Of a DNA stretch of 9,225 bases, positions 1 to 9,225 are shown piece by piece. Origin of the DNA: Candidatus Iainarchaeum sp. (GTDB lineage Archaea; Iainarchaeota; Iainarchaeia; Iainarchaeales; 0-14-0-20-30-16). The stretch spans positions 1 through 9,225 of the forward strand of contig CAIWXP010000038.1 of NCBI GenBank assembly GCA_903916665.1. Reading direction: 5' to 3'. The notes beneath the pieces are model-generated. The model was given only the letters and a program-made list of their open reading frames with translations. It was not told the DNA's origin and ran no database searches. The number at the start of each line of letters is the position of its first letter. Positions within the stretch are counted from its first letter, which is position 1. The translations under genes were made by a program, and so were the position numbers.

Positions 1-66
1 AAATTAAGCATAAACTCGAAACCGTCGCCGCAAAATGATGGGCTTCGTTAAATCGTTACATCGTGA

Positions 67-558
67 ATGGTTGATGAATTAAATGGTGAAGTATGTTGTC
101 CTAGATTTGATCCTGCACCATGGGATGAGAAAACTATTGAATGGAAAAATAAATCATTTGTTAAGAAAAATATTTTTACTTTATTTTATATGCCCTTGAA
201 TATGGGCCCAACAGTTACGAAATTAATTAAAATTATGGAAAATGCAAAAGCAGTTCCAGAAAGCAAAAACTTTTTAATGTTGGCCTATTCTTCTAGCATG
301 TGGAAAACAGAATTATATTTACATGTAACAAAACAAGTTAATGGTTTAGATAATACTACAATATCAGGAAAATTCTTATCAAAGGTTTATGAGGGATCAT
401 TTAAAGATGCAAAATCTTGGTATTTGGATATGAAAGATTATACAAAAAGAAAAACAGGTAAAGAACCTAAAAAAATTTATTGCTATTATACAACTTGTCC
501 CAAATGTGTTAAGAAATATGGTAAAAACTATGTTGTGCTATTAGCACAGGTATTGTGA
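67..558 (+). CDS. Conserved cysteine-rich protein of unknown function (CCPxFDPxPW ... YYTTCPKCxKKYGKNYVV family, sometimes auto-annotated as hydrolase)
   Basis: 163-aa ORF. It has an N-terminal CC pair (EVCCPRFDPAPWDEK) and a C-terminal CPKC (YYTTCPKCVKKYGKNYVVLLAQVL). I recall these from a conserved uncharacterised family in methanogens and anaerobic bacteria. Its stop (556-558) lies 4 nt before the next gene's ATG, suggesting an operon. The start at 67 has no well-spaced SD. Confidence 0.7.
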   Translation: MVDELNGEVCCPRFDPAPWDEKTIEWKNKSFVKKNIFTLFYMPLNMGPTVTKLIKIMENAKAVPESKNFLMLAYSSSMWKTELYLHVTKQVNGLDNTTISGKFLSKVYEGSFKDAKSWYLDMKDYTKRKTGKEPKKIYCYYTTCPKCVKKYGKNYVVLLAQVL

Positions 559-562
559 AATT

Positions 563-1645
563 ATGATTAATAAAGATTTATTTGTTTATGGAATAGCAAA
601 AAAAGCATCTGAAAAAGATATTGAGAATGCAATAGAAAAAGTATTGTTAGAATCTACTAATGGTTTATCCTGGCTAAAAAAAGGAGATACTGTTTTATTA
701 AAACCTACTTTGAATTCCAATGATCCTTATCCAGCAACAACTGATCCTCTTACTTTGAAAGTTGTTGCAGAATTATTGCATAAAAAAGGAGCAAAAGTAA
801 TATTAGCAGATCAATCAGGAATAGAACATGTTATTCAAGATAAAACAGGAATCTTAAAAGGATCATCACAAAAATGCTTTGAAGACTCTGGAATGAATAA
901 ATCTGGGTTATATTTTAATGCTTTAGAAAAAAGAGGGTGGAATAGTTTTTATAAATTTAATAAAACTAAGGCGTGGACAAAAGGATTTTATATTTCTGAT
1001 ATAGTAAAAAATGTAGATCATATAATTAATTTACCTAGAGTTAGTACCCATGCCCAAGCAGGAGTAACTTTAGGTTTTAAAAACTTTGTGGGATTATTAA
1101 GAGAAGATAGTAGATTAGAATTCCATAATTCTGGTCCTTTTAAACAAGCAATAAATGCATTTGCAAAATCAAAAAGTAAAACATTAAAAACTAATTATGT
1201 TAATGAAAATAACTTCTTTGAGAAAATAACAGAAATAAGTTTAGCTACAAAAGACAAATTAAGATTAACATTATTTACAGCAACTAAACTACAAACTACT
1301 TTTGGGCCAGATAAAAAACTAATGGGATTGTTTACAAGTTATATTGTTGAACCCGAAATAGGATTGGTATTTGCTAGTTCAAATCAAGTTGCAACAGAAG
1401 CATTGGCAATAGCATTTTTAATTTTAAACTATAAAACAATTCCTGAAAACAAAAAGGTATTACAAAAACTATTAATAACAGCCAATGGCAAGATTAAAGA
1501 ATTAGGAAAAGAAAATGTTTGGGATAATTTGTTTATTAAAAGTGCTTTGAAACTAAAATTAGGAAATAAAAATTTTGATGTTAATTATAATAATGTTCCA
1601 ATTAAACTACAAAATGAATTAATGAATATATTAAATAATAAATAA
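563..1645 (+). CDS. DUF362 domain-containing protein
   Basis: 360-aa ORF with DUF362-type motifs: GDTVLLKPTLNS...PATTDP.LKVVAELL..KGAKVILADQSG near the N-terminus and INLPRVSTHAQAGVTLGFKNFVG in the middle. GTGA lies 4 nt upstream of the ATG. It abuts the upstream ORF. Confidence 0.8.
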   Translation: MINKDLFVYGIAKKASEKDIENAIEKVLLESTNGLSWLKKGDTVLLKPTLNSNDPYPATTDPLTLKVVAELLHKKGAKVILADQSGIEHVIQDKTGILKGSSQKCFEDSGMNKSGLYFNALEKRGWNSFYKFNKTKAWTKGFYISDIVKNVDHIINLPRVSTHAQAGVTLGFKNFVGLLREDSRLEFHNSGPFKQAINAFAKSKSKTLKTNYVNENNFFEKITEISLATKDKLRLTLFTATKLQTTFGPDKKLMGLFTSYIVEPEIGLVFASSNQVATEALAIAFLILNYKTIPENKKVLQKLLITANGKIKELGKENVWDNLFIKSALKLKLGNKNFDVNYNNVPIKLQNELMNILNNK

Positions 1646-1654
1646 AGTGATTTT

Positions 1655-1783
1655 ATGAATATTATAAAACAATATAGAGATGAGAAAAAAATTGAAGACT
1701 TAGAATACAGAAGAGAATTAGAAAATCAAAATTATTTTGAAGAAGAAAATGAATCAGAAGACGATTTCAAAAAATTTGATTAA
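1655..1783 (+). CDS. Hypothetical small acidic protein (42 aa, MNIIKQYRDEKKIEDLEYRRELENQNYFEEENESEDDFKKFD)
   Basis: Not in the supplied ORF track (too short). The ATG at 1655 is preceded by AGTGAT (1646-1651) with a 3-nt spacer, the same SD-like signal and spacing seen at other genes here. It begins 9 nt after the DUF362 stop. Its stop TAA (1781-1783) overlaps the convergent peptidase stop. Low-complexity E/D/K-rich and short, so it could be spurious. Confidence 0.35.
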   Translation: MNIIKQYRDEKKIEDLEYRRELENQNYFEEENESEDDFKKFD

Positions 1784-2307
1784 TCTAAATGTACAATTTT
1801 ATCTTCTTTGTAATAGGGCTTTCTGCCATAGACTATAATACCGTAATCAAAATACTTTTTATGATTATCAGTATCGTGCCATCGTTCTAAAAATTCTTTA
1901 TAGGATAAATAGGTTCTTACAATACTAGAAGGATCATCAAAAAAAATATAATGTGAATTATAACCAATTGCAACAACATAGTGCCCATCAATCCAATCAC
2001 GATTCCAATGAGATAATTTTTTATTGGGATGTGCTTGAATATCAACTATAATCGGAATATCCTTATCAATAAATTTTTTTATGTCGTCAATGTTTAAACC
2101 ACGTGCGTCTGCTTTAAAACCATAATGTTTCGCAACCTTAACTAGATTATCTATTGATGTACCTTCTTTGGGGTTTGTATGTGCATAATGCATTATATGA
2201 TCTTCTCTTGCATCTACACCATAGTAGGCTAAAACACTTTGCAAAGATTTTGCACCACAATCATAATTGTAGGTTTGTCTGGAAACAGGAAACTCTAATA
2301 TTTTCAT
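1780..2307 (-). CDS. Stand-alone papain-like cysteine peptidase, C39 (bacteriocin-processing peptidase-like) family
   Basis: 175-aa ORF. Q11-x5-C17 (RQTYNYDCGAKSLQSVLAYYG) followed by H109 (DGHYVVAIGY) and D125 (FFDDP). This reproduces the Gln/Cys/His/Asp arrangement and spacing of C39 peptidase domains. No signal peptide, TM segment or ABC-transporter fusion. Confidence 0.8.
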   Translation of the reverse strand: MKILEFPVSRQTYNYDCGAKSLQSVLAYYGVDAREDHIMHYAHTNPKEGTSIDNLVKVAKHYGFKADARGLNIDDIKKFIDKDIPIIVDIQAHPNKKLSHWNRDWIDGHYVVAIGYNSHYIFFDDPSSIVRTYLSYKEFLERWHDTDNHKKYFDYGIIVYGRKPYYKEDKIVHLD

Positions 2308-2332
2308 AATATAAGAAAAGAAATAAATTATA

Positions 2333-2340
2333 TAAAGTTA
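2333..2340 (-). promoter_or_regulatory. Putative archaeal TATA box (TTTATATA) for the C39 peptidase gene, implying a leaderless mRNA
   Basis: The minus strand reads TTTATATA, then 21 nt, then the ATG at 2307. There is no SD in between. This places the predicted transcription start at about the start codon. TATA-like strings are common by chance in AT-rich DNA. Confidence 0.35.
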
Positions 2341-2345
2341 TGCAA

Positions 2346-2615
2346 TCAAAAAAAGTCTAAATAATACTTTTCATACTCTTTATGATCACCAACAAAATAA
2401 AAATTAACTTGTTTTGTATCTTCAAATATCCTATATAATAATCTATATTGACCAATTTCATCAACAAAAAAATTAGCACCTGATTTCAAATGTCTTTTTG
2501 CAGGATATTCTAGAACTTTTGAGATTTTCTTTACAATACGAATTTTCAATTCACGAGATTGTTTATTAAAATACCTATTCCAATCTTCATCATAAGTAGC
2601 AATATATTCTGACAT
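2346..2615 (-). CDS. Type II toxin-antitoxin system toxin, RelE/ParE superfamily
   Basis: 89-aa ORF located 8 nt downstream of an RHH gene. It shows the typical RelE/ParE layout (IRIVKKISKVLEYP...KRHLKSG....YRLLYRI......VNFYFVGDHKEYEKYY). Confidence 0.75.
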   Translation of the reverse strand: MSEYIATYDEDWNRYFNKQSRELKIRIVKKISKVLEYPAKRHLKSGANFFVDEIGQYRLLYRIFEDTKQVNFYFVGDHKEYEKYYLDFF

Positions 2616-2623
2616 AAAACATA

Positions 2624-2869
2624 TTATTTAAGATATTTTTCGTATTCCCCTAATGCTTCTTTAGAATTTAATATTTTTCTTCTACCTGCTTTTGCTTCTG
2701 TATCTATATAATCTAATTTCTTATTAATTAACTCTATTTCTTTATTTAAATGTTCTTTTCCAAAATAAACAATTGCCATTCTTATTGCCTCAGATTGAGT
2801 ATTAGCATAACCTTCTTCAACCATTAAATCCAAATACTCTTTAGTTACTCCTCTCAATATAACATTCAT
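2624..2869 (-). CDS. Ribbon-helix-helix (CopG/Arc-like) antitoxin
   Basis: 81-aa ORF. N-terminal beta-strand plus two helices (MNVILRGVTKEYLDLMVEEGYANTQSEAIRMAIVYF), then a charged C-terminal tail. It sits directly upstream of the RelE-like gene. AGTGAT lies 5 nt upstream of the ATG. Confidence 0.7.
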   Translation of the reverse strand: MNVILRGVTKEYLDLMVEEGYANTQSEAIRMAIVYFGKEHLNKEIELINKKLDYIDTEAKAGRRKILNSKEALGEYEKYLK

Positions 2870-2900
2870 AATAAATCACTAATATAATTAGAAACAAATG

Positions 2901-2915
2901 ATTTAAATATGCTTT
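2901..2915 (-). promoter_or_regulatory. Putative BRE/TATA promoter of the RHH-RelE operon (AAAGCATATTTAAAT)
   Basis: The minus strand has AAAGC followed by ATATTTAAAT, 31 nt upstream of the ATG at 2869. The same AAAGC+TATA arrangement occurs upstream of the lipoprotein gene (4743-4756). Confidence 0.3.
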
Positions 2916-2937
2916 GTTTTTGATTCATTATTGATCT

Positions 2938-2977
2938 AAAAAGAACCCAAAAGGGTTAGAGGATTCTTCGAATCCTC
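2938..2977 (-). terminator. Two tandem hairpins plus a U5 tract immediately 3' of tRNA-His (terminator-like)
   Basis: On the minus strand, 6 nt after the tRNA 3' end, there is a perfect 8-bp stem GAGGATTC-GAA-GAATCCTC (2977-2959). Next comes a 5-bp stem AACCC-TTTT-GGGTT (2957-2944), then CTTTTT (2943-2938). Confidence 0.4.
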
Positions 2978-2983
2978 ATAAAG

Positions 2984-3056
2984 GACCTGGACCGGGATTT
3001 GGACCCGGGTCAGAAGATCCACAGTCTTCTATCCTAACCACTAGACCATCCAAGTC
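2984..3056 (-). tRNA. tRNA-His: tRNA-His (anticodon GUG) with encoded G-1, no encoded CCA
   Basis: Cloverleaf folded by hand from the minus strand. G-1 is followed by acceptor ACTTGGA/TCCAGGT (one T-G wobble) and C73 opposite G-1. D arm GTCT-AGTGGTTA-GGAT. Anticodon arm GAAGA-CTGTGGA-TCTTC (anticodon GTG). 4-nt variable loop TGAC. T arm CCGGG-TCCAAAT-CCCGG. The 8-bp acceptor with G-1:C73 is the histidine identity hallmark. Confidence 0.9.
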
Positions 3057-3061
3057 ATACA

Positions 3062-3080
3062 AGCTTTTTCAAAAAAAGCT
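3062..3080 (-). terminator. Hairpin with U7 tract (AGCUUUUU-UUG-AAAAAGCU) overlapping the stop codon of the AbrB-like gene
   Basis: Perfect 8-bp inverted repeat 3062-3069/3073-3080 with a 3-nt loop. The minus strand carries T7, the archaeal oligo-T termination signal. It sits between a TATA-like TTCTAAAAAT (3093-3084) and the tRNA 5' end (3056). Confidence 0.35.
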
Positions 3081-3321
3081 GACATTTTTAGAACATAGAG
3101 TAACATTTGTATCTAAACTAGGTTTTTCAAACTTTAATAATAAAGAATCATTATCCTTAAAAAGCTTTAGAATAACTCTTGAATCATTTTTATTTAAGCC
3201 TAAAGAATCTCTTATCTCTAAAGGTAAAACTAGTCTAGATTTAGAATCCAATGCAATTACATAGGTTACTTGGGTGATGAAGTTGATCCCTTCTGTTTAA
3301 TGTATTTGTATTTTCGCTCAT
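3069..3321 (-). pseudogene. AbrB/MazE/SpoVT-type DNA-binding protein gene with an apparent +1 frame disruption near the N-terminus (or sequencing error)
   Basis: The track ORF (3251-3069) starts at a TTG and begins MDSKSRLVLPLEIRDSLGL, the SpoVT-AbrB swapped-hairpin motif. The same frame stays open upstream to 3296 and encodes TEGINFITQVTYVIAL, which supplies the missing first beta-strand but contains no ATG/GTG/TTG. A strong start (GAGGTGAT-GATGAT-ATG, ATG at 3321) lies in the adjacent frame. That frame encodes only 26 aa before a stop at 3243-3241. Confidence 0.55.
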
Positions 3322-3423
3322 ATCATCATCACCTCACATGTATAAAATTCTAAAATCTTTTATTGTAATAATATAGGATTTATCCCACTATATAAAGATT
3401 TCCTAAGTTATGTTTACTACTCC

Positions 3424-4701
3424 TTAACCATTTATTGTTAAATTCCAATAGGTTAATTCCTGGCCTGTTGCTTGATCTTCAGTTTGAGGCCCAAATATTC
3501 TACTATTTTGTCCAATCAATTTATTTCCTGTGGCAAAACCATTAATAGATATTTGCATACTCACCATCATTGTTCCTTTACCTAATTGTTGATCTGGTAA
3601 AGTATCACAATAACTATCTCTTGTTGATGAAGGTATTTTATCATAATTTACATCAACATTAAAAAATGGAGAACCATAATAATGAGTATTTACATCAAAT
3701 CCTAAAAAAAGTTTTTTATTCTCAAGAGTTATTGGAATTTCTCCTGTACCTTCTTGTGTTGTAATTGTACATCCAGAATCAACAACACTTTTATAGGACC
3801 AAAGAAATTTTCCCTCTTCCAAATAATAATTCTGAAGTCCAACAGTCATACCATAGGCCTCATATTGTTTTAAGGTTGTTCCAATAATATCATACTTCTC
3901 AGATAAATAAGAATTTGGTTCAGTAGATTCATATTCATAGTGCATTCTACTACACATAGTTTCTGCAGTCTTTTCTTTTGCTTCTGCTTGGTTTTGCAAA
4001 TCTGTCCAACCTAATAAACCACATAAAATAGCAATTTCTTTTAATCTATTAACACAGGTATATTGATCATTTATCTCATTGGAAACTCTTTTCTTAATTG
4101 TATCCCAAACCTGTTGATTTATTTTTCCTGTTGTATCTAAACCCATTTTTTCAATTACTTCTAAAGCATTCAATAACATTGAATTAGAAGAATTAGGATT
4201 ATTTATTATATCTAATGCCCAATTTAATATTTTTGCTTTTGCTGTTGTATCAATTGCACCTTCATTTGGCAAACCTAAAGATTGTGCTAACCCCAAAGCA
4301 TTTAATAATTGCATAGGTGTTGCATTAGGATCATTTATTACTGCATTTGTTTGTGCTGTTGCTGCATCTGTTACTGCTTGTTGCTGTTGAGAAGTCTCTG
4401 TTCCTTGGGCTTGGGCATTGCCTAAATTATTTAATGCATCCTTTGTTGCTTGTTCAGAACCTTTAGGATTTGTAGGTTCAGGCTGTACTGCATTTGGATC
4501 ACTATTCACATTTATTACTTTAGGATCAACTTCACTAGGACCCCCATTATTTGGACTATTGGCAGTACCATTATTATTAGTTAAATTAGATTGTGTTGTT
4601 CCTAAGTTATTGTTATTAGTTGCATTAGAAACACAACCAGATAATAAAACAACACCAATTAAAAAAATACCCAATATAAAAATAGAAACTTTAGCAAGCA
4701 T
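3424..4701 (-). CDS. Predicted secreted lipoprotein with an N/T/Q/P-rich linker, LLNAL-type repeats and a Cys-containing C-terminal domain; function unknown
   Basis: The long ORF in the track starts at a TTG (4713). The ATG at 4701 is preceded by GGTGAT (4710-4705) with a 3-nt spacer. From that start the protein begins MLAKVSIFILGIFLIGVVLLSGC, a hydrophobic signal plus an L-S-G-C lipobox. About 100 residues of low-complexity N/T/Q/P/A sequence follow, then a roughly 300-aa non-repetitive region with 5 further Cys. Confidence 0.8.
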   Translation of the reverse strand: MLAKVSIFILGIFLIGVVLLSGCVSNATNNNNLGTTQSNLTNNNGTANSPNNGGPSEVDPKVINVNSDPNAVQPEPTNPKGSEQATKDALNNLGNAQAQGTETSQQQQAVTDAATAQTNAVINDPNATPMQLLNALGLAQSLGLPNEGAIDTTAKAKILNWALDIINNPNSSNSMLLNALEVIEKMGLDTTGKINQQVWDTIKKRVSNEINDQYTCVNRLKEIAILCGLLGWTDLQNQAEAKEKTAETMCSRMHYEYESTEPNSYLSEKYDIIGTTLKQYEAYGMTVGLQNYYLEEGKFLWSYKSVVDSGCTITTQEGTGEIPITLENKKLFLGFDVNTHYYGSPFFNVDVNYDKIPSSTRDSYCDTLPDQQLGKGTMMVSMQISINGFATGNKLIGQNSRIFGPQTEDQATGQELTYWNLTING

Positions 4702-4742
4702 AGCATCACCCAAACATCAACTGTCAGAATAATGTAAAAGAA

Positions 4743-4756
4743 GTATAAAAAGCTTT
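4743..4756 (-). promoter_or_regulatory. Putative BRE/TATA promoter of the lipoprotein gene (AAAGCTTTTTATAC)
   Basis: It lies on the minus strand, 2 nt after the fibrillarin stop codon. There are 42 nt from the TATA element to the ATG at 4701. That leaves room for a roughly 20-nt leader carrying the GGTGAT SD. Confidence 0.35.
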
Positions 4757-4758
4757 AC

Positions 4759-5394
4759 TTAAACTTTAACAATAATAAAATAATGATTCTTTTCAAAAGG
4801 ATTCAAATCTAAAACCTTTTCTACTCTTATCTTAGCCTCTTGGAACTTTCTTACGCTTATATCTAAAACTTGCTTAGGTTGCTTTGTTGAATCTATGCTA
4901 TTTGTTTTCAAAGCAATTGCGTGTGTTCCGGGCTTAGCAAAGAGTTTTATCAAATCAATAAATGTTTCAACCATATTCTTTTGTGCAATGTCTTGAAAAA
5001 CAAAATCAAACTTTTGGCCTTTTAATAAATCACAATCTTCCAAATGACCTGCATCAAATAATAAAGGAAAAACATTGTCTCTTTTTTTAGACAATTCTAA
5101 AAAAGGTAACATTGTAAAACTAGAAATATCAACACCAATAATTGATTTAGCTTCCAAATCAGATAAATGAGAAACTGTTGTTCCTGTCGATGAACCTAAA
5201 TATAAAACATCTTTGTTTTGTAAATCTGGCAAAATAAATCCTTTCTTTATTGCTGCAGAAATCTTTGAACTAAAAGGACTCCATTCTCTCAGATAATAAT
5301 TATCCTGTTTAATAATTACTTCATCATACCATTGTAATTTATCAGAACATTTGGTATACAATCTATCTTTCACATAAACTAAATTTTGATTCAT
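4759..5394 (-). CDS. flpA: Fibrillarin-like rRNA/tRNA 2'-O-methyltransferase (box C/D RNP catalytic subunit)
   Basis: Clear archaeal fibrillarin motifs: YREWSPFSSKISAAIKKG, the SAM-binding VLYLGSSTGTTVSHLSD, FQDIAQKNMVE, HAIALKTNSIDSTKQPKQV and NPFEKNHYFIIV. The track start at 5406 overlaps the upstream stop (TAATG). The ATG at 5394 has GGTGAT (5404-5399) with a 4-nt spacer and is my preferred start. Confidence 0.9.
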   Translation of the reverse strand: MNQNLVYVKDRLYTKCSDKLQWYDEVIIKQDNYYLREWSPFSSKISAAIKKGFILPDLQNKDVLYLGSSTGTTVSHLSDLEAKSIIGVDISSFTMLPFLELSKKRDNVFPLLFDAGHLEDCDLLKGQKFDFVFQDIAQKNMVETFIDLIKLFAKPGTHAIALKTNSIDSTKQPKQVLDISVRKFQEAKIRVEKVLDLNPFEKNHYFIIVKV

Positions 5395-5405
5395 AATTAT
5401 CACCA

Positions 5406-6194
5406 TTAAGGAAAGAAAACATTTCCATATAAATCATAAATAACAATAGGATCATGAGGTCTTAAAGTTAACATTGCTTTTGCTGTTTGATAAACTACTT
5501 TTGGATCAGAATTTAAAACCTGAATTCCTAAAACAGGATTGTGTCCAATATCTTTTATTATGCTCCAATCAGTTCTTCCGAATTGATGATTTAGTCTTCT
5601 TCCATCCCATACATTTGGATCTAAATAAACTATACAATTATATTTTCTCCAATCATATTCTGTTCTTAATACACTAAACTGATAAAAAAAATCATACTCT
5701 GCTTTTTTAGGAGATTTTTCTAAAGGCCGAGCAATATCGTATTCTAATTTAGACATTTCTTTACCTTCAAAAGGATTATCATAACGCAATTTAGAAACTG
5801 CATTTGCTATATTTTCTATACGCATTGCTTTTTCTTTTCTAGATTCTAAAGCATCTCTTTTTGTTTGTGCTATTTGTTTTTGTTGTTCTAAGGGTCTAAC
5901 TGATCTTTGAAAATCTAATTTAAATCTTTCAATTTCTCTCACATATGCTTGAGCTTTTTGTGATCCAAATTTCTTTTGAGCACGTTCAAATTCTTTATAT
6001 CTTTTTTTAAAAGTTCCTTCAGTTAAAGTGAAACTGGTATTATAAATTCGACGACTGGGTTTACGATCAAGTAGCATTTTTTCTGTCCCATCACCTAATG
6101 ATTGTCTATATACTCCAACTCTATGACGCATTACATCAAATGCGCCGGGTTTATATCTAAATCTTTTTTGTGGTTCTTTAGGCATAGTATTCAC
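5406..6194 (-). CDS. Hypothetical protein, no family recognised (basic N-terminus, K/R/E/Q-rich predicted coiled coil, roughly 100-aa C-terminal globular region)
   Basis: 259-262-aa ORF, starting at GTG 6194 or ATG 6185. GTG 6194 overlaps the upstream stop by 4 nt (GTGA). Its stop TAA (5408-5406) overlaps the ATG at 5406 and lies inside the fibrillarin SD region. No motif that I can assign. Confidence 0.75.
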   Translation of the reverse strand: MNTMPKEPQKRFRYKPGAFDVMRHRVGVYRQSLGDGTEKMLLDRKPSRRIYNTSFTLTEGTFKKRYKEFERAQKKFGSQKAQAYVREIERFKLDFQRSVRPLEQQKQIAQTKRDALESRKEKAMRIENIANAVSKLRYDNPFEGKEMSKLEYDIARPLEKSPKKAEYDFFYQFSVLRTEYDWRKYNCIVYLDPNVWDGRRLNHQFGRTDWSIIKDIGHNPVLGIQVLNSDPKVVYQTAKAMLTLRPHDPIVIYDLYGNVFFP

Positions 6195-7543
6195 TCTTTA
6201 ACCGGTTTTAAAACTTTCCAATATCCACCCTTATCTGGCCCAACTCTTTCTAATATCCCTTTTTGCTTTAATTTTTGTAATTGTTTTTCAACAGCTCTTG
6301 TCGTAATATTTAATTTAATGGATAATTCTTTTGCAGAAACTGTTGGTTCAAACTCAATTAAATCCAAGATTCTCTCCGAACTTTTCTCCGAACTTTTCTC
6401 CGAACTCTTCTGAACAATCTTTCCCAAATTATTTGATGCTACATCTTGTGATTTTATAGACCGCGGAAATATAGCTCTAAATTCTAAATCTACAATGAGT
6501 TCAAATTTTGCCTTGGGTTCTACTTTCAATATTTTTTTAATGCCAGTACCCCATCTTTCAACAAAATTAACTCTATGAAATATTTCCGCAATTAAATCAT
6601 TACGTCTTTCAGAAACATTTTTTCTTACTATATCTTTAACTGTAAGCCCTTTATAGAGATTTCCTGGATTTCTTATTTCTACTCTATCACTAAAAACAGC
6701 AATATTTACTGAATCATACATTGTATAATCTCTATGACAGAACGCATTAATTATTGCTTCTCTTAATGCACTTTTATTAATTTCAGGCACATCAATCCTT
6801 CGCATACCGTCTAAACGCATACCTATATTTATATGTTGTAAAATATATGTTTCTGCTCTTTTTATCAATTCAAATAGGTCTCCAACAAAATCTTGCATAT
6901 CAATAGACTCTACTGTACTAGGAGTAACAAATGTAGCACACCTTAACTTAGCATTTTGAATAAATTCTTCTGGATTTTTTGCAAAAAGAACAACACAAGC
7001 ATTCAAGGGATTTTCATTTTTTAATAAATTCAATTTAGTTAAAACATTTATTTTGGAGTCATAATTCAAATTAGATAATTTACAAAACTCTTTTAATTTG
7101 CTTTCAGATATATCTTTCAAACCAGCATCCTTACAAATTAAAGTATCCCATTTACTTGAATTAATATCATTAAAATATCTTTGTAATTCCGCAGTAGTCA
7201 TTTGTTTATCGGAATCAGCAACTCTAATATAATATTTACCATAGGCAGAATAAGGTATCTTATCTCCTTGGAAATCTATTTCTATAAATTCTTTTTGGTC
7301 AATTTGTTTTTTTTCTATTTTAGGATAAATCTTTGGTTCAATATAATCTGAAATTGATTTCTCAATATCTCTTAATGTTTTTTCATTTATTGATTGCACA
7401 AATATTTTTCCTGAATTATCAATACCAAAATATAATTTCCCTTTGTTGTGCTTGTTTAAAATAGCAGATATAGAAATAATTCCTTCTTTTAACTGTGTTA
7501 ATGTTTTCTTCAATTCAATAGTCTCAGATTCTTTAAATTGCAT
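6191..7543 (-). CDS. AlbA_2 (Schlafen-like divergent AAA) + HATPase_c_4 + C-terminal winged-helix protein; putative ATP-dependent DNA-binding regulator (often auto-annotated RecG-like)
   Basis: N-terminal FKESETIELKK (the ESxxLEFK signature of AlbA_2). Central REAIINAFCHRDY, VEIRNPGNL and SERRNDLIAEIFHRVNFVERWGTGIKKI (HATPase_c_4). C-terminal wHTH ILDLIEFEPTVSAKELSIKLNITTRAVEKQLQKLKQKGILERVG. The track start at 7573 overlaps nop5 by 17 nt. The ATG at 7543 (M11) has GGTGA (7552-7548) 4 nt upstream and puts the AlbA_2 motif at the N-terminus, so I prefer it. Confidence 0.85.
   Translation of the reverse strand: MQFKESETIELKKTLTQLKEGIISISAILNKHNKGKLYFGIDNSGKIFVQSINEKTLRDIEKSISDYIEPKIYPKIEKKQIDQKEFIEIDFQGDKIPYSAYGKYYIRVADSDKQMTTAELQRYFNDINSSKWDTLICKDAGLKDISESKLKEFCKLSNLNYDSKINVLTKLNLLKNENPLNACVVLFAKNPEEFIQNAKLRCATFVTPSTVESIDMQDFVGDLFELIKRAETYILQHINIGMRLDGMRRIDVPEINKSALREAIINAFCHRDYTMYDSVNIAVFSDRVEIRNPGNLYKGLTVKDIVRKNVSERRNDLIAEIFHRVNFVERWGTGIKKILKVEPKAKFELIVDLEFRAIFPRSIKSQDVASNNLGKIVQKSSEKSSEKSSERILDLIEFEPTVSAKELSIKLNITTRAVEKQLQKLKQKGILERVGPDKGGYWKVLKPVKE
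6373..6408 (-). repeat. In-frame 12-bp tandem repeat x3 (plus strand tctccgaacttt, third copy with one mismatch) encoding (KSSE)3
   Basis: Direct reading gives 6373-6384, 6385-6396 and 6397-6408. It lies in the linker between the HATPase_c_4 region and the C-terminal wHTH of the 450-aa protein (KSSEKSSEKSSER). Confidence 0.9.
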
Positions 7544-7556
7544 ATCTTCACCACAA

Positions 7557-8372
7557 TCATCTTCTTTTATCAAATCTTTTTTTATCTTTTGGATTTGATT
7601 CTTTTAAATTTAAAGCCTGTTTCTTAATTGGTTTTTCTTTCTCTGCTAAAATGCTTTTCTTTTTTTTCTCTATATCTTCCAATAATTCTTTATGCAAAGG
7701 TTTCTTTGCGTAATCATATCTACTTGCTAAAGAAATCTTTTCAGCCATATGTCTTGCTAATTTACCTTTTTGTTTTGGTGTTAATAAAGTCATTAATGGA
7801 TGCAAGTAAAGCAAACCGTACTTAGGAGAAGATTTACCAAACTTTAAATGTTTAAACATTGCTGTTTCTGCACCAAACAATTGTAATGTTGATGCAGGTA
7901 AACTAGATAAACGTTTCAAACTATGAGCTTGATTTAGAAATCGCACAGTTAAAAGAGGTCCTAAAATGTTTGTTAAATTAGGATAAAGATCCTTTGCTTT
8001 CTTTGTTAAAAAATTTTCTATCTTTGATGCATTGGAATAAACATTTAATAATGTTGTTGCTAAACTTTTTATTTGTGTTAAATCATCTTTATGTAAACCC
8101 TGAGATAAATATTTATCTTTTTCTAATTGATTTACTTCACTATCAGAAAGATATTTAACAAACTTAAAACTATCTTTCTTTAATTCATCATACTTTTGAC
8201 TATTATGTAAAGAATACCAATCTTTTAAATATTCAAAAAAAGTATTAAATTGTTTTTGACACAGATCAAAATTTGCCAAACCTCTTAACAAACTTTGTTC
8301 TTCAATATTATTTTCAGAATAATCTTTTATTGCATCTTCTGTTTGTTTAATAAACTCTTTTTTATTTAACAT
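7557..8372 (-). CDS. nop5: Nop5 (Nop56/58) box C/D RNP scaffold homologue, short form lacking the N-terminal fibrillarin-binding domain
   Basis: 271 aa. LKDWYSLH matches the coiled-coil entry motif (RLREWYSLHFPEL in canonical Nop5). The Nop domain is clear: YPNLTNILGPLLTVRFLNQAHSLKRLSSLPASTLQLFGAETAMFKHL..G...PKYGLLYLHP......KQKGKLARHMAEKISLASRYDY. It ends in a Lys-rich tail. GGTGAT lies 5 nt upstream of the ATG at 8372. Only 47 nt separate it from the upstream gene, so there is no room for an N-terminal domain exon. Confidence 0.85.
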   Translation of the reverse strand: MLNKKEFIKQTEDAIKDYSENNIEEQSLLRGLANFDLCQKQFNTFFEYLKDWYSLHNSQKYDELKKDSFKFVKYLSDSEVNQLEKDKYLSQGLHKDDLTQIKSLATTLLNVYSNASKIENFLTKKAKDLYPNLTNILGPLLTVRFLNQAHSLKRLSSLPASTLQLFGAETAMFKHLKFGKSSPKYGLLYLHPLMTLLTPKQKGKLARHMAEKISLASRYDYAKKPLHKELLEDIEKKKKSILAEKEKPIKKQALNLKESNPKDKKRFDKRR

Positions 8373-8419
8373 TAAATATCACCAATTATAAATATAAATC
8401 TAAAATTATTTTGTTAATA

Positions 8420-9225
8420 TTACTCTACAGAATATCTATGATGTTTTTGGTTAAAGGTTTCTTCCTTAGAATATCGTTTCATTATATCAATTAACATTTC
8501 ACCAAATACACTGCTTTGCTTTTCATTATTAAGCTCAGCAAAAACATTTTTTAAAATCTCATTGGTTGCCATTACCTGAGGAACAACAACATATTTTATT
8601 CCTCTTTTATAAAGATCAACAGCTTCTTGAACAAAATAAGCTCTCATAAATACTGGCACTTTAGTCGCATCAACATAGGATAATATAACTTCATTTACAT
8701 CATAGTAAGGTATTGTTATAATTACTGCTCTTGCTTTATTCAAATTTATTTTTTCTAATATTTCTATTGAATCTGCCTGCCCACAAACTGCATAAACATT
8801 CAATTTCATTGCGCTAATAATTGTATCAGGGTCATCATCAACAACAACAATATTTTTTGGTGCTATTAAATTACTTCTTAACAATCCTTCTAATACTCCC
8901 GAACCCATACGACCTAATCCAAATAAAACAACATGATTTTCAAAATCTTTCTCGGAAATATTATCCAATTCCTCTTTTCTTTGTTTGTATATAAATTTAG
9001 AAAAGTATTTGTTTATAGGATGTAATACTTTTTCAAAAAATGTATTCTTTGATAAAACATAGGGCGTTAAAATTAAAGTAACTGCAATAAATAAAATTAT
9101 TGTTGTACTAATTGATTCATTGATAATTGCACCTAAAGTTGCAAATTGAACAATAACCAACGAAAATTCACTTATTTGAAATAAACCAGAAGAAACATAG
9201 AACGATGTTCTTTCATCATAGCCAG
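8420..9225 (-). CDS. Monovalent cation:proton antiporter (CPA2/Kef-like) C-terminal part with RCK/TrkA-N domain; 5' end outside the window
   Basis: The track starts at a TTG (9160), but the frame stays open to the window edge (..GYDERTSFYVSSGLFQISEFSLVIVQFATLG..). This resembles the last TM helices of Na+/H+ exchanger-family proteins. A Rossmann GxGxxG (HVVLFGLGRMGSGVLEGL) follows, typical of TrkA-N/RCK. Confidence 0.75.
   Translation of the reverse strand, partial: GYDERTSFYVSSGLFQISEFSLVIVQFATLGAIINESISTTIILFIAVTLILTPYVLSKNTFFEKVLHPINKYFSKFIYKQRKEELDNISEKDFENHVVLFGLGRMGSGVLEGLLRSNLIAPKNIVVVDDDPDTIISAMKLNVYAVCGQADSIEILEKINLNKARAVIITIPYYDVNEVILSYVDATKVPVFMRAYFVQEAVDLYKRGIKYVVVPQVMATNEILKNVFAELNNEKQSSVFGEMLIDIMKRYSKEETFNQKHHRYSVE

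Follow-up and report, generated by a model that had tools for sequence, protein, structure and literature searches.

In canonical archaeal box C/D ribonucleoprotein (RNP) particles, the N-terminal domain of Nop5 is the part that binds fibrillarin (PMC3608112). The present analysis concerns a locus at which Nop5 lacks this domain. The locus lies on a stretch of 9,225 nucleotides from Candidatus Iainarchaeum sp. (assembly GCA_903916665.1, contig CAIWXP010000038.1, positions 1 to 9,225; hereafter 'the window'), where a gene for a protein without an assigned family, here referred to as the orphan, is situated between the genes for an AlbA_2-domain protein and fibrillarin. DPANN genomes often harbour families that are specific to a lineage and have yet to be characterised. 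The original prediction, which was made from the letters of the DNA, regarded the orphan as a candidate accessory or adaptor protein of the box C/D RNP that might be made in fixed stoichiometry with fibrillarin, or equally as the partner of the AlbA_2 protein upstream.

Among described systems, the N-terminal domain of Nop5 together with its coiled coil provides the closest comparison. The orphan resembles this part of Nop5 in combining a small globular alpha/beta domain with a long, predicted helical region within about 260 residues, which is also a comparable size, and its gene lies next to those for fibrillarin and for a Nop5 from which precisely this part is missing. It differs in that the helical arm comes first and the globular domain last, which reverses the order, in that it has no NOP5NT or Nop5/Nop56/Nop58 sequence similarity and no demonstrated coiled coil, and in that it is linked to fibrillarin in a single clade only. 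The tRNA 2'-phosphotransferases (Tpt1/KptA) gave the top, non-significant structural match and have strands and helices that follow one another in a comparable order over some 120 residues, but the profile-profile comparison was negative, the Arg-His-Arg-Arg tetrad and the H-G-T motif of these enzymes are not conserved in the orphan family, and Tpt1 has no basic helical arm. Lastly, by analogy, the orphan recalls the extensions of ribosomal proteins and nucleocapsid-type arms, in which charge is kept while sequence is not and which are attached to a folded core, although no homology of the orphan family to ribosomal or chromatin proteins was found.

Here we report that the orphan gene is a real, conserved coding gene and that its product, as judged from library searches, is a member of an undescribed protein family in which a basic N-terminal arm precedes a C-terminal domain modelled with high confidence. 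The family and its C-terminal fold are new, in that they are present in no curated family library or solved-structure collection searched. The reading that we tentatively favour is that of an autonomous nucleic-acid-binding protein, and we take the position of its gene beside fibrillarin not to be evidence of a fixed subunit.

The orphan gene and its family

The orphan is encoded by an uninterrupted open reading frame (ORF) on the minus strand (6194..5406), which specifies 262 residues if read from GTG 6194. This was the reading of the original prediction, and the residue numbers used below follow it. The start is likely to be ATG 6185 rather than GTG 6194, so that the coding sequence (5406..6185, minus strand) would extend from ATG 6185 to the TAA at 5408-5406 and specify 259 residues beginning with MPKEPQ. 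ATG 6185 is preferred because the start region (6186..6196, minus strand) presents a Shine-Dalgarno (SD)-like GAGTGA at 6196-6191 with a 5-nt spacer, in line with the GGTGAT-type motifs 3-5 nt before the ATG codons of the neighbouring genes, because the source gene call (P0074) is exactly the same 259-residue protein, and because many homologues have MPK N-termini. The alternative GTG (6194-6192) lies within the same start region. In the case of P0025, the start is probably the second MPK (residue 23).

The gene has tight junctions on both sides, in agreement with the coupling that the original prediction had described. The TGA stop codon of the AlbA_2 gene (6193-6191) falls within the SD-like GAGTGA of the orphan, and a single nucleotide separates the TAA of the orphan (5408-5406) from the GGTGAT motif of fibrillarin (5399..5404, minus strand), which is situated 4 nt before ATG 5394. 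An alternative fibrillarin ATG at 5406 overlaps the stop codon of the orphan. A GGTGAT-type motif recurs 3-5 nt upstream of the ATG codons of Nop5, fibrillarin and the gene for a 429-residue protein downstream of fibrillarin (there within GGGTGAT), and the AlbA_2 gene (ATG 7543) carries the variant GGTGAA.

An exhaustive HMMER search with a two-sequence profile identified 44 cluster representatives with E-values of 1e-3 or less, 39 of them with E-values of 1e-10 or less; a word-indexed homology search returned only P0001 (42% identity) and P0022. Most family members are 230-330 residues long, and in nearly all of them the match reaches the last residue. The uninterrupted frame, these 44 homologous representatives and the high-confidence structure prediction described below together confirm that the orphan is a real, conserved coding gene.

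The orphan protein matched no Pfam, NCBIfam or PHROGs family, and a comparison of the 44 members with Pfam yielded nothing beyond chance among the 25 of 29 families listed at E≤1. PADLOC gave no match for the four family members scanned. Among PDB sequences, no chain was detected at E≤10 with profiles of the C-terminal domain family, and only three chance-level matches were obtained with the full-length profile. Matches of the family to ribosomal proteins were likewise at chance level, and literature searches returned no description of the family. The earlier statement that no family could be assigned is thus borne out by the curated libraries and the sequences in the PDB.

One annotated member, QQR92990.1 (A0A7T9I222), is a hypothetical protein on a 1.05-Mb contig of a Candidatus Iainarchaeum (Diapherotrites) metagenome-assembled genome (MAG), and it is on this basis that we place the family in DPANN-type archaea, the only group in which it has been encountered. 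Searches of IMG/VR, INPHARED phages and PLSDB plasmids returned no relatives, and a viral or plasmid origin was rejected. The MAG GCA_964373935.1 holds two divergent copies (locus L003, 3-122, and locus L008, 5649-6596), one for each major branch of the tree. These copies likely stem from an old duplication, and two paralogues per genome may occur.

A basic arm and a conserved C-terminal domain

Residues 118-262 of the orphan (5409..5843, minus strand) were modelled by AlphaFold2 as an alpha/beta domain of 145 residues with a mean pLDDT of 91 and a pTM of 0.87 (42-sequence alignment). The predicted order of elements is b1-a1-b2-a2-b3-b4-b5-a3-b6-b7, and RIENIANAVSKL corresponds to strand 1 and helix 1 of this domain. 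A globular C-terminus rich in aromatic residues and His had been proposed to start at residue 165. The composition is as described (20% W, Y, F or H in residues 165-262), whereas the start is not, because the fold begins near residue 120.

The most conserved block, residues 205-262 (5409..5582, minus strand), runs to the very C-terminus and has the consensus WG.I...LGIQVFDPDPK.LL..AKAMAKRRP.DPI.I.DLYGNVFYP. Further upstream, the consensus of the C-terminal half reads RFE.L...L.EL.....F.G.EA ... YNC.VFF...AF. Three prolines (P231, P249 and P262) are invariant in the family, conservation reaches 90% or more at W210, D254, Y256, G257, F260 and the R of RFE, and the family alignment contains no invariant or conserved His. 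Genomes whose whole orphans are 31-39% identical share 58-72% of the last 60 residues. A set of conserved positions made up mostly of Pro, Gly, Trp and aromatic residues, with one invariant Asp, a near-invariant Arg and no His, resembles that of a binding module more than that of an enzyme. From this alignment we infer that the C-terminal domain acts as a binding scaffold.

The N-terminal arm, residues 4-117 (5844..6185, minus strand), has a net charge of +15 and a pI of 10.4. It was predicted to be helical at low confidence: in the full-length model (2-sequence alignment, pLDDT 38), helices were predicted over residues 18-134 with pLDDT values below 55. As modelled, the arm is therefore best described as probably helical. 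In the family it measures about 90-170 residues. Its sequence is poorly conserved, while its basic charge is kept in 33 of the 34 full-length members (pI >9), with a median net charge of +16 and a median pI of 10.6 across the 34. The basic character that had been assigned to residues 1-60 is evident from their pI of 10.4. For residues 63-136 a K/R/E/Q-rich coiled coil had been suggested. Indeed, half of these residues (50%) are K, R, E or Q and their net charge is +11. A coiled coil is no more than a possibility here, since 12% of the shuffles (mean 0.17, sd 0.07) attained the observed heptad contrast of 0.28, and the helix itself is of low confidence.

Nop5 without its docking domain

The Nop5 encoded in the window (7557..8372, minus strand) has 271 residues and consists of the coiled-coil and Nop domains only, the N-terminal fibrillarin-docking domain being missing. 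A Pfam scan matched the Nop domain only. Residues 24-237 align to residues 137-371 of Pyrococcus furiosus Nop5 (2nnw_A), and residues 34-238 align to residues 13-238 of the 255-residue Nop5 chain 3icx_A. The ATG of the gene is separated by only 47 bp from the upstream TrkA-domain gene. In view of these alignments and of the 47-bp gap, the N-terminal domain is considered to be truly absent, in agreement with the original prediction.

The same applies to 18 related Nop5 clusters (50-100% identity), which comprise 240-296 residues and match PF01798 only. On the strength of these sequences, the loss of the N-terminal domain is confirmed as a trait of the lineage or clade as a whole. Short Nop5 genes were located at L004 1726-2484, L009 3790-4599, L013 7001-7753, L014 7001-7741 and L015 7001-7783, and in this clade Nop5 stays tightly coupled to fibrillarin, with overlaps of 4 bp or gaps of 4-5 bp. 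No Pfam NOP5NT match is on record for any gene in the flanks retrieved around the short Nop5 loci, and literature searches gave no description of a Nop5 without the N-terminal domain in DPANN archaea. The present work thus confirms a clade-wide loss of the only known fibrillarin attachment.

Gene neighbourhoods of family members

We compared 10 distinct contexts of family members and 3 contexts of short Nop5-fibrillarin pairs (L013, L014 and L015/L016), L009 being from the same organism as L001. A metagenome scan with an alignment of a subset of the family yielded just this one organism, already known from L001. The window has the order TrkA - Nop5 - AlbA_2 - orphan - fibrillarin. In L001/L009 the order is TrkA - Nop5 - 135-residue membrane protein - fibrillarin - orphan - 145-residue protein, in L004 it is TrkA - Nop5 - fibrillarin - orphan, and in L011 it is TrkA - orphan (P0007) - AlbA_2, after which the contig ends, so that only the TrkA flank of this locus is visible. 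The orphan is adjacent to fibrillarin only in the window, L001/L009 and L004.

For six further members (L003, L006, L007, L008, L010 and L012), neither Nop5 nor fibrillarin was present in the visible flanks. Their neighbours are a VTT-domain protein and a beta-CASP protein in L006, Bro-N and Fic proteins upstream in L007, a phage-type metallopeptidase downstream in L003, and a PRC barrel protein and an integrase fragment in L010. In L008, which is from the same MAG as L003, a zinc-ribbon protein is encoded upstream, and 128-residue RelE/ParE-like and 89-residue winged-helix-like ORFs are found downstream (both assigned by eye, with no Pfam match on record). SRAP, DUF8156 and PolB proteins are encoded in L012, where the family-B DNA polymerase (2328-4562) is directly downstream of family member P0013. 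L006 was considered as a possible Nop5-fibrillarin locus and rejected, its VTT-domain and Cys-rich neighbours being unrelated to the genes of L015 and L009. Several of the neighbours, namely Fic, AlbA_2, toxin-antitoxin genes, the integrase fragment and the phage-type metallopeptidase, are typical of variable regions.

In L013, L014 and L015/L016, a search with the family hidden Markov model in all six-frame ORFs of the 12-15-kb loci brought up no member of the family in the 7 kb around Nop5-fibrillarin. The gene after fibrillarin encodes a 184-residue membrane protein in L013 and L015/L016, where it starts 1 bp past fibrillarin, and a 136-residue protein in L014. Between genomes, fibrillarin is 72-94%, Nop5 53-88% and the orphan 31-41% identical, so that the orphan as a whole evolves much faster than the other two. 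The pairwise identities of fibrillarin and Nop5 reveal that the presence of the orphan does not track relatedness: L004, which has the orphan at this locus, and L014, which does not, have fibrillarins that are 94% identical and Nop5 proteins that are 88% identical, and L013 and L015, without the orphan at the locus, are nevertheless nearer to the window (76% for Nop5) than is L004 (61%). The original prediction had looked to homologues beside fibrillarin in other genomes. Such linkage beyond one clade was not encountered, as the gene keeps to this neighbourhood in four genomes only and is absent from three related loci. The linkage to fibrillarin is clade-restricted and positionally unstable.

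In L013-L015, 31 of the 66 same-strand neighbour pairs are at most 10 bp apart or overlap, including pairs of unrelated function, and the gene after fibrillarin starts 0-1 bp past its stop codon whatever its product (L004 and L013-L015). Tight spacing is therefore the local norm and says little about a stoichiometric partnership. Consequently, we rejected translational coupling as evidence of stoichiometry, and the idea that the junction marks subunits made in a fixed ratio was not upheld.

Possible roles of the orphan protein

According to the reading that we favour, the polycationic arm would bind a polyanion, RNA or DNA, in a non-specific manner, while the C-terminal domain, itself conserved, would specifically recognise a partner that is conserved as well, either a protein or a structured nucleic acid. 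Binding of nucleic acid by the arm is what we infer from a charge that is kept without conservation of sequence. The place of the gene beside fibrillarin would reflect shared ancestry and frequent shuffling at a gene-dense, same-strand locus within one lineage. This reading is supported by the existence of a real family, unmatched in the libraries searched, with a basic arm throughout, by the confident model of the domain and the mainly structural nature of its conserved residues, by the varied neighbourhoods, by the two divergent copies in one MAG, by the finding that the locus is not fixed and by the tight spacing that is the local norm. Several points weigh on the other side. The gene stays in the TrkA-Nop5-fibrillarin neighbourhood in four genomes of the clade despite four different orders, and selection for joint expression with the C/D machinery could account for this retention. 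A clade without the only known fibrillarin-docking module also needs a tether, for which the orphan is a candidate, and, when the same genomes are compared, the conservation of the last 60 residues roughly equals that of Nop5. Should the orphan not be a tether, it would remain a conserved protein with the build of a nucleic-acid binder, encoded by very small genomes, in which a gene that has been kept tends to be important. The family and its fold add a new domain to the DPANN archaea, a poorly understood group.

The candidate role as a tether would have the orphan replace the lost docking function of Nop5, with the C-terminal domain docking fibrillarin and the basic helical arm binding the Nop5 coiled coil, the guide or target RNA, or both. 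We consider this unlikely, although it has a concrete basis. Nop5 is without its docking domain in the window and in the 18 related clusters of 240-296 residues; despite rearrangements, the window, L001/L009 and L004 all have the orphan gene in the Nop5-fibrillarin neighbourhood, and in L011 it adjoins TrkA; a globular domain with long helices mirrors the part lost from Nop5; the identity of the C-terminal 60 residues (58-72%) is similar to that of Nop5 (56-71%); and the basic arm is present family-wide. Against this stand the loci of the same clade that have no family member within 7 kb of Nop5-fibrillarin, among them L014, the near relative of L004, as well as the six members without Nop5 or fibrillarin in their visible flanks, the two paralogues in one MAG and the uninformative gene junctions. 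The C-terminal domain also shows no sequence similarity to any Nop5, Nop56 or Nop58 chain, and none of these chains was among its Foldseek matches. NOP5NT (PF08156) was matched neither by the orphan of the window nor by any of the 44 members within the families listed at E≤1 (25 of 29). The proposed bridging of fibrillarin to the RNP is thus not backed by synteny across lineages or by similarity to the Nop5 N-terminal domain. The gene could be located elsewhere in those genomes that lack it at the locus, and the orphan is a concrete but weak candidate for the missing link. That the family serves as the replacement tether in this DPANN lineage, which would provide the box C/D methylation RNP with a fourth, previously unknown core protein, is in our judgement slightly less likely still.

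The orphan and the AlbA_2/HATPase_c_4/winged-helix protein might instead form a two-gene accessory module, of a regulatory or conflict/defence type, which would move about within a variable chromosomal spot. The AlbA_2 stop codon is located inside the start region of the orphan, and in L011 the gene for P0007 is followed after 13 bp by a gene for an AlbA_2 protein that is 37% identical to that of the window and shares the N-terminus MQFKE-ETIELK with it. The AlbA_2 proteins have domains in common with pAgo-associated defence proteins, and other family members are encoded beside Fic, toxin-antitoxin genes, a phage-type metallopeptidase or an integrase fragment. The AlbA_2 partnership thus gains one further adjacency, that in L011. 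However, AlbA_2 is adjacent in only 2 of the 10 distinct contexts, which are from related genomes, concern the same locus and have reversed gene orders, and the remaining eight contexts have no AlbA_2 gene beside the orphan. In L004 and L001/L009 the orphan is present but AlbA_2 is not, none of the four members scanned matches PADLOC, and the viral, phage and plasmid collections mentioned above contain no relatives. Accordingly, we regard such a module as quite improbable. A degenerate Tpt1/ADP-ribosyltransferase-like domain that recognises or modifies 2' or terminal groups of RNA is more improbable still. Foldseek searches with the model of the C-terminal domain gave no significant fold match, the best PDB match being yeast tRNA 2'-phosphotransferase 7yw4 (E 0.12, probability 0.72, TM 0.43/0.50, rmsd 6.9), which is below significance, and the weak BFVD matches include a phage ADP-ribosyltransferase. 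In our own reading of the alignments, the K-R-F strand of Tpt1 has a possible echo in the R-F-E strand of the family, which is near-invariant. Membership of the Tpt1 family was rejected, as hhalign gave a probability of only 0.2% for the family profile against a Tpt1 alignment whose sequences had been rebuilt from PDB alignments via a KptA query, and as the catalytic Arg-His-Arg-Arg and H-G-T positions have no conserved counterpart in the family. Likewise, no His is invariant in the family, the H-L-S positions have no conserved counterpart either, and PF01885 was not matched by any member within the families listed at E≤1. In fold, the domain may bear a remote resemblance to Tpt1.

Other features of the window and of related loci

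The window is AT-rich, with a GC content of about 0.21-0.34. The genes discussed above form a tight row on the minus strand, which starts with the C-terminal part of a TrkA-domain transporter (9160..8420) and continues with Nop5, the AlbA_2 protein, the orphan, fibrillarin and the 429-residue protein. The AlbA_2 (Schlafen-type) protein with its HATPase_c_4 and winged-helix parts (6191..7543) is the upstream neighbour of the orphan. Its start is probably ATG 7543 rather than TTG 7573 (ORF 7573..6191), since the N-terminus MQFKESETIELK matches that of the homologue in L011. The protein matches PHROG 12156 ('DNA helicase', E 4e-70) and pAgo-associated PADLOC models, and a short tandem peptide repeat (SEKSSEKSSEKSSE) is present in its linker, at about 6380-6420. 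Fibrillarin (4759..5394, minus strand) has 211 residues from ATG 5394 and matches PF01269 with an E-value of 3.6e-44.

The last gene of the row (3424..4713, minus strand) encodes the 429-residue protein, which has an N-terminal hydrophobic segment. This protein ranges from 385 to 429 residues across the window and L009 (7026-8183), and both the window and L001/L009 have kept it on the downstream side of the locus. It has a high content of Asn, Gln and Thr and no Pfam match, and with a Cys just past the hydrophobic segment it is possibly a lipoprotein. In L001 (2556-2993) and L009 (6540-6977), the gene for the 145-residue protein overlaps the stop codon of the orphan homologue P0001. This protein has a weak DUF6886 match and begins with ...YVYHGSAKK..., which may recall the H-G-S/T start of ADP-ribosyltransferase-type domains.

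A tRNA-His (GUG) gene is located at 2983-3055 on the minus strand. Beside it, also on the minus strand, ORFs for an apparent pair of an 89-residue RelE/ParE-type toxin and an 81-residue ribbon-helix-helix antitoxin and for a 60-residue AbrB/SpoVT-like protein were assigned by eye (2346-2615, 2624-2869 and 3069-3251), and an ORF with an AbrB-like sequence resembling that of the window, likewise judged by eye, is present at L009 8311-8589. The segment beside tRNA-His may be a small integrated or variable one. Genes of 863 residues that contain inteins (Intein_splicing and LAGLIDADG) were observed at L001 8988-11579 and L013 12743-14753, and a stand-alone, 175-residue peptidase C39-like protein without a fused ABC transporter is encoded both in the window (1780-2307, minus strand) and in L015 (11666-12193).

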